Shown piece after piece: positions 7,601 through 10,600 of a stretch of DNA of 64,000 nucleotides. The position numbers were made by a program. The DNA is from Escherichia coli (GTDB lineage: Bacteria > Pseudomonadota > Gammaproteobacteria > Enterobacterales > Enterobacteriaceae). Each line of letters starts with the position of its first letter. Within the stretch, counting starts at the first letter, position 1. The DNA is taken from the NCBI RefSeq assembly GCF_046105845.1, contig NZ_CP151004.1; one strand, given 5' to 3'.

Positions 7601-10600
7601 TAATGGCATTCAGAATGAGTGAACAACCACGGACCATAAAAATTTATAATCTGCTGGCCGGAACTAATGAATTTATTGGTGAAGGTGACGCATATATTCC
7701 ACCTCATACAGGTCTGCCTGCAAACAGTACCGATATTGCACCGCCAGATATTCCGGCAGGATTCGTAGCCGTTTTCAACAGTAATGAGGCATCGTGGCAT
7801 CTCGTTGAAGATCATCGGGGTAAAACGGTTTATGACGTGGCTTCCGGCGACGCGTTATTTATTTCTGAACTCGGACCGCTACCGGAACATGTCACCTGGT
7901 TATCCCCGGAAGGGGAGTTTCAGAAGTGGAACGGCACAGCTTGGGTGAAAGATGCAGAAGCAGAAAAACTGTTCCGGATCCGGGAGGCGGAAGAAACAAA
8001 AAACAGCCTGATGCAGGTAGCCAGTGAGCATATAGCGCCGCTTCAGGATGCTGTAGATCTGGAGATCGCAACGGAGGAAGAAAATTCGTTGCTGGAAGCC
8101 TGGAAAAAGTATCGGGTGTTGCTGAACCGTGTTGATACATCAACTGCACCTGATATTGAGTGGCCGATAATTCCTGTAACATCATAGTCATTATTTATTT
8201 GTTTTGCTGACATGTTGTATACGACAACGTGTCAGCAGTTTGACTGGTATTATAACGAATATATTGTAATGTTTTCTGGTGTTATTAATTGTTGTTTTAT
8301 TACCATATATCTATGGGTTTTGTTTTCTGCTCATCTAAACAAAATGCACAGATGTAAGCCCCCTTACTTCGGTTGTACTGAACCGTTTCTAAAGCAGAGT
8401 CAAGATGTTTACTATCAAAGTTCCAGCTTTTTTCCATAACAGAAACACATTTTCTGCAATAGAAACTTTCTTTTGAGTTAGTATCTCCTGAATCATTTTT
8501 AGTGTAGCCAAAGAATTTTTTTGCTGATTCCTTTGAACATGCGGAAATGGCTGCAGTGAACTCATAATGAGTTTGAAGCATAGCCCATACAATACCTGAA
8601 AATTCTTCATCCTCGTCTTCATCTAGTCCTATATTAATGCCGCCAGAGGAATGTATTGCTTTATATTTATACCTATGCCATATCCAGTGTGCTGATTCAG
8701 TATTTAGATAGTTGTGAGCACGTACAACTGATGTGAAAATTAGCTCTGGCATTATATCTGTTTTTTTATCAACCGTATGCATAAAACGATTTCTTAGAAT
8801 GCGCATACTATTAAACCAAGTAATAAAGTCATCAGGCAGTGATTTAGAGGCGAAAGTATTATATACTTTAATTAAATCTTGGGCGTCTAATGTGTGGAAG
8901 TCTGAAAATGAAATGTTACCTTCACTATCAGGTTTAGGTGTATTGCGAGTTGCATTCGTGATAAGTAGATAAGGTGATATTTCGACGATAAGTCCTTTTA
9001 GTCTGAATTCAATGGATTGAAGTATCAAATTAAAAGATGTAATCAATTTTGGTCTAGCAAATAACCAATAATGCTCTAAATTTTTAATATCTGATTCTGT
9101 ATAGAATTTAGACGTTTTACAATAACTATTCCAAAGGTTTATATCTCTGTAATCATAAGCTAAATCGGCAATTTTTTCCCAAGCCTCATTTACCATGTGG
9201 TCAGCCATTGTATAAAAATCAGTCTTTGTTGGAATGTCAGTTATCATTATCAATCTACCTTTGGGTCTTTATTGTTGTCTATCAAGATATAATATTCAGG
9301 CTGGAGTGGCTAATGTTGATCTACTTATTTTCTCCCGGTAAGTCAGTTTATCGCGATATAAGCCGCATTTGATTTTGGCGACTATGGTCGTGTTAGGTAT
9401 GTATCTGGCGTGTTACTGCGCCAGATTAAATATAAACCAATAATATTAAAGGGTGTTACTCTCTTGACAGATTTAGGGAACAAATCACTCGTCAGCTGAC
9501 TCCCAAGTATCTTTCAGAGTTTCCTGAACAAAAGTTTTAGCTGAATCTTTATCGGCGGTGCGCCTAACAGAAAAACCATCGTTGCTGGTGGCTTTTACGA
9601 TCATCTCCACATCGTCATAATGCTCGCCAATGTATTGGGTTAATTCTTCCTTTAATGCGTCTACAGCGCCGTTTGGCATTTGGTCATTTTGTCTTTGGCT
9701 ATGGAGATCTCAATACGCATAACATTTCTTTTGTACTGCGTTTGTAGACAGTATTATTCTTATCTGTGTAAATAAACAGTATCAAGACTTCGTTTTAGCT
9801 GCATAAGAAAAAAGAGATGGATACATTCGGAAAGATTTTGATGGTGGTAGGCTAAGTGAATAGCCTAAAGGTGTTTTACCCCAATTATTCCCCGGTATTT
9901 CTCCGCATAAAAAACAATCATAAAAACAACAGCCATAATAGGCTGGTTCTTAAGGGATTTTTGGTCCACGAGAGAATTTGAACCTCCGACCCCCGACACC
10001 CCATAATGGTGTAATTAATCAGGTTAAATATTTAGCAGATCCTCTACAATATCATTAAACCCAGATGCCTGTTTAGATACAGAATTGAATAAGTCTCTAA
10101 GTGCTTGTGTTTGCTCAAAAGTTTCCCAAAGTGTTTTATAACTTGGCGTTACAATTGCTAATACTAAGCCTTCCGCCCATGACCATTCATGTTCATCAAA
10201 ATAGTAGCGATATTTTCTGCTGTATATAACAAAATCCTTTTCCTTATATTTAGCATGAAACACAACTTGAATTATATCCTGTGTACCATTAACAAGGTTT
10301 TCAGGCGCATCAATTGCCATCCAATTTATCATTTTTTGGACAGTTAACTTATTTAATGAAACAATTAGCTTTGTGGTTTTATCGTTATGCATAATTAGTC
10401 CAGTTGCATATCTTTCACAATTTCGTTAACTCTTGAGTTGAGTATACTCAACTTCTCATAGAGCTTCCAGGCTTGGTCTTGGTCATTGATATTAATGGAG
10501 ATTTCTTTTCTTCGAAAGATTCCTTTGGGTTTGACTTCATCAAAAAATATATCAATCTTTGAGCGTTCCTTGGTTGGAAGCCTGCTGAAAAGGCTTTCAG

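Follow-up and report, generated by a model that had tools for sequence, protein, structure and literature searches.

The window analysed here is the whole stretch of 64,000 nucleotides from Escherichia coli (RefSeq assembly GCF_046105845.1, contig NZ_CP151004.1; one strand, 5′ to 3′), and our subject is a minus-strand gene in it whose coding sequence (CDS) runs over 8300..9247, with the stop codon at 8300-8302. The product has 315 amino acids (WP_000627053.1 in RefSeq), with a predicted HEPN domain in its N-terminal part and a predicted zinc-binding module of four cysteines (Cys4) in its C-terminal half; all database copies of it are named 'hypothetical protein'. The gene sits in an island on the 3′ side of ssrA, the transfer-messenger RNA gene (Rfam; 11039..11401, minus strand) that is the integration site of the island, and smpB lies at 11616-12098. 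The island is a decayed lambdoid prophage, in which a tail-fibre gene cut by an IS3 insertion sequence (IS) is followed by tfa, the HEPN gene, a truncated dinI-like open reading frame (ORF) and two small ORFs. The tail-fibre assembly gene tfa (7603..8187, plus strand) marks a cargo slot at the end of this degraded prophage. E. coli HS shares the same island arrangement, and no second copy of the ssrA 3′ end, by which the island might be delimited, was found within the window. We argue that the protein is probably a ribonuclease (RNase) of abortive-infection (Abi) type that acts without a partner and is set off by phage.

An earlier note on this DNA had placed at 8300..9253 an ORF of 317 amino acids, in AT-rich surroundings and convergent with tfa. 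The six-frame ORF list does contain this minus-strand frame, with a TTG start, and it faces tfa convergently; the fraction of G and C is 0.34-0.38 across 8001-9500 versus ~0.50 in flanking core genes, and the RILRNRFMH peptide and the CRKC...CAFC pair that had been read in the frame are both there. The ORF is thus real, while its length needs correction. The ATG at 9247 is the likelier start, giving 315 amino acids, because WP_000627053.1 and 28 aligned homologues begin at its methionine or 1-14 residues upstream; the TTG at 9253 would lengthen the protein by 2 residues. Residues are numbered on the 315-residue form throughout. Between the convergent stops of tfa and the HEPN gene lies an inverted repeat (8205..8237) with 14-nucleotide arms (93% complementary) and a 5-nucleotide loop, which from its sequence is plausibly a bidirectional terminator.

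The R-x4-H signature from which the earlier note had suspected a HEPN RNase is present, but by itself it is at chance level, with two Rx4-6H motifs observed against about 1.0 expected from the 11 arginines and 10 histidines of the protein. Its significance goes far beyond chance because it is invariant across 101 sequences that are 23-65% identical to the window protein, a diverse alignment drawn from the clusters of a profile search (below). Just nine columns of this alignment are invariant: P6, K84, R152, N153, H157, C264, C267, C300 and C303. They include the R, N and H of the predicted catalytic motif R152-N153-R-F-M-H157 (8777..8794, minus strand), whose conservation among homologues was the expectation of the note, while R149, three residues before R152, is retained in 99% of the members. 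The 29 close relatives (46-81% identity to the window protein) have R149, R152, N153, M156, H157 and the four cysteines without exception. Further out, R-x2-R-N-x3-H occurs in 146 of the 149 best distant representatives listed; two of the others have R-N-x3-H, and the last is a fragment cut at the motif.

An AlphaFold2 (AF2) model was built from a 29-sequence alignment and has a mean predicted local distance difference test score of 87.9 and a predicted template modelling (TM) score of 0.85. The fold it predicts is indeed HEPN: residues 1-181 (8705..9247, minus strand) form a four-helix up-down bundle, with helices at 8-45, 65-90, 139-157 and 167-181 and a conserved insert (residues 91-138) between core helices 2 and 3. 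HEPN domains are defined by such a bundle with its insert, by an Rx4-6H motif that ends helix 3 and has a polar N, D or H after the R, and by a conserved acidic residue of helix 2, typically in E-x3-[KR] (PMC3710099). In the model R152-N153-x3-H157 closes helix 139-157, with the polar N right after the R, and a conserved acidic residue of helix 2 is supplied by E80-x3-K84 (8996..9010, minus strand; E in 96% and K in 100% of the 101 members), which falls inside helix 65-90. All three sequence-structure features of the definition are found in the predicted fold and the alignment, at the level of the superfamily. Domains of this kind with an intact Rx4-6H are metal-independent endoribonucleases, with the active site at the dimer interface (PMC3710099, PMC13017515). 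Taking the modelled fold together with the invariant residues, we regard the window protein as very probably a HEPN RNase. Further down the list of entries that followed from the AF2 model are Csm6 (7.8), LsoA (6.8), the HEPN domain of AbiA (6.8) and HepS of Gifsy-1 (6.2).

Conservation peaks in helix 2 and the insert that follows it, and is lowest in the loop between helices 1 and 2 and in the C-terminal half. This variable half, as delimited by the model and by conservation (residues 182-315; 8303..8704, minus strand), consists of three helices (188-199, 218-236 and 239-246), an acidic loop modelled with low confidence (200-217) and the Cys4 module (8339..8458, minus strand), in which C264-x2-C267 is followed by C300-x2-C303. 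The CxxC-x27-CxxC spacing given earlier is wrong; 32 residues separate the two pairs, and across the family the spacer measures 24-36 residues. A zinc ribbon has two CxxC knuckles, each borne by a beta-hairpin, that chelate one zinc; in the model a short helix (265-271) follows the first CxxC and a beta-hairpin (289-300) precedes the second. Zinc-ribbon matches to Pfam in family members are weak ones alone, and the four cysteines are likely to form a metal site. A second Cys4 cluster follows the first, beyond residue 303, in 88 of the 101 members (consensus R-x2-C-x4-C-x-G-N-V...C-L-x-C); the clade of E. coli, other Enterobacterales and Acinetobacter has lost it. The C-terminal half is likely to be either a sensor or a part that binds RNA or another substrate. 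That it is specifically the helical and Cys4 half that senses is a tentative suggestion, made by analogy with the systems compared below.

The protein had been called an orphan, which does not hold: the close family comprises 40 clusters at 90% identity, and when 1.84 billion representative proteins were searched with a profile, 595 clusters at 50% identity came up at an expectation value (E) ≤1e-3, of which 133 reached E≤1e-30; most are ~300 amino acids long. The 595 clusters span many phyla and are nearly all unnamed. In E. coli the gene is rare (14 of 5,426 complete genomes). Named families and structures are of little help with it. The window protein has no match in Pfam even at E≤10, no NCBIfam model recognises it, its sole match in PHROGs is a chance-level 'tail tube' (E 0.13), and searches of PDB sequences with the single protein and with both profiles gave cysteine-rich noise alone (e.g. 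cytochromes c, CTCF, TRIM31). Among the 101 members, HEPN_Swt1 is matched by eight (best 1.9e-4) and HEPN_RiboL-PSP by five at E≤0.1. The matches are weak but agree with one another, and the window protein itself has none; we take them as pointing to kinship at the level of the clade, not to membership. Foldseek against AFDB50 gave full-length matches with TM scores of 0.6-0.9 from Pseudomonas, Vibrio, Microcystis, Sphingomonas, Pirellula, Hymenobacter and others; most are 'uncharacterized', and some are auto-named Swt1-, Apea-, DZIP3-, AbiU2- or RiboL-PSP-like HEPN.

Temperate phages, plasmids and small islands carry the gene as cargo, and it travels alone. In 21 other loci with homologues 24-78% identical, tblastn found neither tfa nor any of the three island neighbours in company with the gene, and no neighbour is conserved among these diverged loci. 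One copy is in an intact circular 44.6-kb lambdoid element (pZ1323HEC0010-3), where the gene lies between tfa and the integrase/ParA end. This is the only 'plasmid' copy in E. coli; the element is a complete lambdoid phage genome that has an integrase as well as ParA, and it could be a phage-plasmid or else a prophage that was excised or mis-binned. In a P2-like prophage a diverged homologue stands between tail-fibre-assembly and sheath genes, a slot that we take to be the variable region holding Z/fun in P2. The homologue in Proteus comes immediately after a prophage integrase, and those in Acinetobacter prophages occupy the early region, with replication genes on one side and packaging genes on the other. 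A Salmonella conjugative element carries one next to a restriction-modification pair of EcoRII type; plasmids of Klebsiella, Moellerella and Sphingomonas have homologues near VapBC, a restriction endonuclease and integrases; and in Pectobacterium the homologue is in a small chromosomal islet next to fis, without phage genes. Nine viral contigs of IMG/VR encode the protein, five of them with the gene at most ~2.5 kb from the contig end.

The earlier note had stated that K-12 carries the RnlAB module at ssrA, and CP4-57 does carry rnlAB there; K-12 also has abpAB at the same site. That K-12 keeps both RnlAB and AbpAB at it fits a view of ssrA as a site where defence cargo is swapped.

The other features of the island can be dealt with briefly. 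Partner roles for the dinI-like ORF, orf122 and orf153 were rejected, as the gene is accompanied by them in near-identical E. coli copies alone (tblastn). No tandem repeats, antitoxin-like RNA or Rfam family were found adjacent to the gene, and a type-III-like RNA antitoxin or cis-regulatory RNA was rejected in view of the missing adjacent repeats and Rfam match. The DinI-like ORF (9485-9679, minus strand; 64 amino acids) matches PHROG 189 (E 1e-17) and scores below the cutoff of the NCBIfam DinI model; in the RefSeq annotation of E. coli HS it is a pseudogene with a frameshift. Adjoining ssrA is a two-gene operon of orf153 (10395-10856, minus strand), with a hydrophobic helix at the N-terminus of its product, and orf122 (10024-10392, minus strand; WP_000551278.1). 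Neither has a match in Pfam, PADLOC or NCBIfam, and an entry in the DefensePredictor supplement (PMC13092281) gives orf122 as 'Predicted novel defense gene' with log-odds 7.33; with this operon the island could hold another defence candidate, separate from the HEPN gene. A hairpin rich in G and C and flanked by runs of A and T (aaaaacccgcatatgcgggtttttt, 10886-10912) lies in the gap from orf153 to the ssrA 3′ end; it has several weak Rfam matches of terminator type on both strands and is probably a bidirectional terminator. On the other side of the HEPN gene, the tfa CDS contains a full-length IS009 Rfam match (RF02111, 222.6 bits; 7946-8144, plus strand). The IS3-family element (5789-7002, minus strand) has two overlapping transposase ORFs and appears to truncate both an autotransporter-like ORF (1,337 amino acids; 1806-5819, plus strand) and the tail-fibre fragment (6938-7603, plus strand); at the equivalent spot E. 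coli HS has IS1 and a YpjC-family pseudogene instead.

We read the protein, with a probability of roughly 0.6, as a solo HEPN RNase of abortive-infection type that lies latent until a phage triggers it. The reading is made by analogy and draws on the invariant catalytic set, the absence of a partner gene, the cargo-like distribution on mobile elements and the variable, zinc-bearing C-terminal half. RNase activity, latency, a phage trigger and a role for the C-terminal half are what we infer from the predicted fold, the invariant residues and the genomic context. A lysogen would produce the protein in latent form until a cue from an infecting phage switched it on; activated, it would cut cellular and/or phage RNA (tRNA, rRNA or mRNA) and so halt translation. 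Like those of other HEPN enzymes, its active site would probably need the subunits of a dimer or higher oligomer to be complete.

Several results weigh against such a defence role. The protein has zero matches to the 5,027 defence models of PADLOC, and no paper found in a literature search names WP_000627053. A tblastn search of 50,697 GenBank phage records gave zero matches and Foldseek against the BFVD viral structures nothing significant, so that the link to prophages draws on the prophage-like contexts and on IMG/VR. A scan for promoters and terminators around the gene did no better than on shuffled sequence, and the prophage that hosts the gene is degraded in this strain. The argument from context is also one of guilt by association, from ~12 distinct neighbourhoods that were inspected by eye with no statistical test.

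Other readings of a partnerless HEPN gene on mobile elements have to be set beside these points. The protein could be a toxin, belonging to a toxin-antitoxin or addiction module by which its prophage or plasmid is stabilised, with phage defence at most a side effect; restraint would then come from an unrecognised small protein, an antisense or repeat RNA antitoxin, or the C-terminal half of the protein itself. Homologues on conjugative plasmids near VapBC modules agree with this, and RNA antitoxins are possible for AbiF-type HEPNs (PMC12373285). We consider it unlikely nonetheless, since no neighbour is conserved across the 21 diverged loci, an MNT-type partner is lacking, adjacent tandem repeats and Rfam matches are absent, and the intergenic regions vary from context to context. 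Another possibility is that the RNase acts on transcripts of the host or the element at induction or transfer, processing or degrading them, rather than sensing phage for Abi; it might in this way serve the life cycle of the element, through host shut-off, regulation or exclusion of competing elements. Its gene would be expected inside prophages, as it is, including the early region of those in Acinetobacter, and the zinc module could then be a plain RNA-binding domain. What makes this improbable is that the slot varies, being early, tail-end, integrase-adjacent, on plasmids or in the Pectobacterium islet that has no phage genes; a slot that shifts across elements is the pattern of cargo, not of a core function. 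In addition, the E. coli gene is transcribed opposite to the late operon, and the sequenced phage records hold no copy.

Two further alternatives would deny the protein an enzymatic or any current role. As a non-catalytic HEPN scaffold that binds RNA, nucleotide or protein it would be a regulator or adaptor, yet non-catalytic HEPNs characteristically lose Rx4-6H (PMC3710099), and with R, N and H invariant here and E-x3-K retained we give this very little weight. It is just as improbable that the gene is, in this strain, an unexpressed and now functionless leftover of the decayed prophage. The IS-cut tail-fibre gene, the truncated dinI-like gene, the loss of the integrase from the remnant and a promoter scan that gave nothing above chance are what such decay would leave. 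Against it, the ORF is intact and 99.7% identical to the copy in the intact 44.6-kb element, the same remnant is kept with an intact gene in 13 chromosomes, and host-adaptive cargo tends to survive in remnant prophages (Rousset et al., PMC9122126).

Were the abortive-infection reading true, a widespread single-gene HEPN defence family would have been missed by the models of PADLOC v2, Pfam, NCBIfam and PHROG. It would also account for the retention of a lambdoid prophage remnant at the ssrA hotspot, and it would bear on the means by which solo HEPN nucleases are kept silent and detect phages. What we add is an un-named, widespread family that joins HEPN to Cys4; the solo HEPN Abi design itself is already well known, and a defence role is plausible rather than surprising.

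Placing the protein among known HEPN systems, we find the guess in the earlier note, an Abi-type HEPN RNase effector, supported as far as computation reaches (by the motif, the E-x3-K of helix 2 and the invariant cysteines), and the families that it named, Abi_2 and RnlA/LsoA, not supported. Abi_2 (PF07751) is rejected, with no match of the window protein at E≤10, none in the 101 members and none to AbiD in PADLOC, where PD-T7-4, Gao_Ape and PD-T4-2 likewise go unmatched by the window protein. RnlA/LsoA (RNase LS, CP4-57) is alike in that a HEPN protein is encoded in an island at ssrA, RnlA being an RNase defence effector; it is rejected because hhalign of the diverse alignment against K-12 RnlA gave a probability of 0.3% and no conserved downstream gene exists. 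Our gene has no RnlB/Dmd-type antitoxin gene beside it, and the domain architecture is another. HepT/MntA toxins of type VII toxin-antitoxin systems and minimal HEPN proteins (1ufb, 2hsb, 5yep) have ~130 amino acids and are paired with an MNT nucleotidyltransferase antitoxin, whereas the window protein has an extra C-terminal half of 130 residues and no MNT neighbour; this type is rejected because such a partner adjoins the gene in no inspected locus.

The nearest named sequence families are those of the Abi2/Swt1 clade (HEPN_Swt1, PF18731, and HEPN_RiboL-PSP, PF18735; PMC3710099), and a Microcystis 'RiboL-PSP-HEPN' protein (AFDB rank 46) has 38% identity over the HEPN domain. The window protein differs from them in staying below every Pfam threshold and in having no L-PSP or PIN fusion. 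Among the bacterial proteins in the 2013 HEPN census are Swt1-like HEPNs to which a zinc ribbon is fused (Npun_R5629; PMC3710099); a literature search on 'Swt1-like HEPN' found no papers.

RAZR offers a close parallel in design, since it too is a single protein that joins a Cys4 zinc module to a HEPN RNase. It stays non-toxic until phage portal or recombinase rings give it a core on which to assemble, by way of a variable zinc-finger domain (ZFD) that sets its specificity (PMC13017515), and the zinc-bearing half of the window protein is likewise among its most variable parts. The order is reversed, however: in RAZR the ZFD is N-terminal and the HEPN, of DUF4145 type with R146...H154, is C-terminal, whereas the window protein has HEPN first, Cys4 last and an RNxxxH of the Swt1/RiboL-PSP type. 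RAZR/PD-T7-4 is rejected as an assignment on this domain order and on the lack of a PADLOC or DUF4145 match. Under the abortive-infection reading the protein would be a second, independently evolved HEPN and zinc-module design for comparison with RAZR. The protein is of value as a counterpart to RAZR and as a clean candidate for a defence screen. A bolder proposal, which we hold to be rather doubtful, is that the family consists of one-protein phage sensors. In these a phage protein or nucleic acid would be recognised by a hypervariable C-terminal module of helices and Cys4, doubled in most members, which would then trigger the HEPN RNase by induced oligomerisation. The E. coli protein would then be the founding E. 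coli example, the enterobacterial form with a single Cys4 a trimmed derivative, and the mechanism convergent with that of RAZR, from the opposite domain order and a different HEPN clade.

For the way the protein might work, HepS of Gifsy-1 ('HEPN Solo', PDB 9oik; PMC13043305) is a precedent, being like the window protein a partnerless HEPN with a canonical Rx4H carried as prophage cargo. HepS is a resting, non-toxic tetramer until siphovirus tail-tip proteins activate it (its trigger is the tail-tip protein J), whereupon it cleaves tRNA anticodon loops (PMC13043305); a similar course, latent and then switched on by a phage protein, is predicted for the window protein. HepS differs in its 218 amino acids, in having no zinc module and in showing no sequence similarity to the window protein. 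ApeA (Gao_Ape; bioRxiv 10.64898/2026.01.26.701840) is also a single-protein HEPN Abi system, and some AFDB relatives of the family are auto-named 'Apea-like HEPN', but its N-terminal domain is large and rich in beta structure, and it has a pocket for a small molecule (deoxydinucleotide). By analogy with these solo HEPN Abi systems, we infer a protein that works like HepS, RAZR or ApeA and is a member of none of them.

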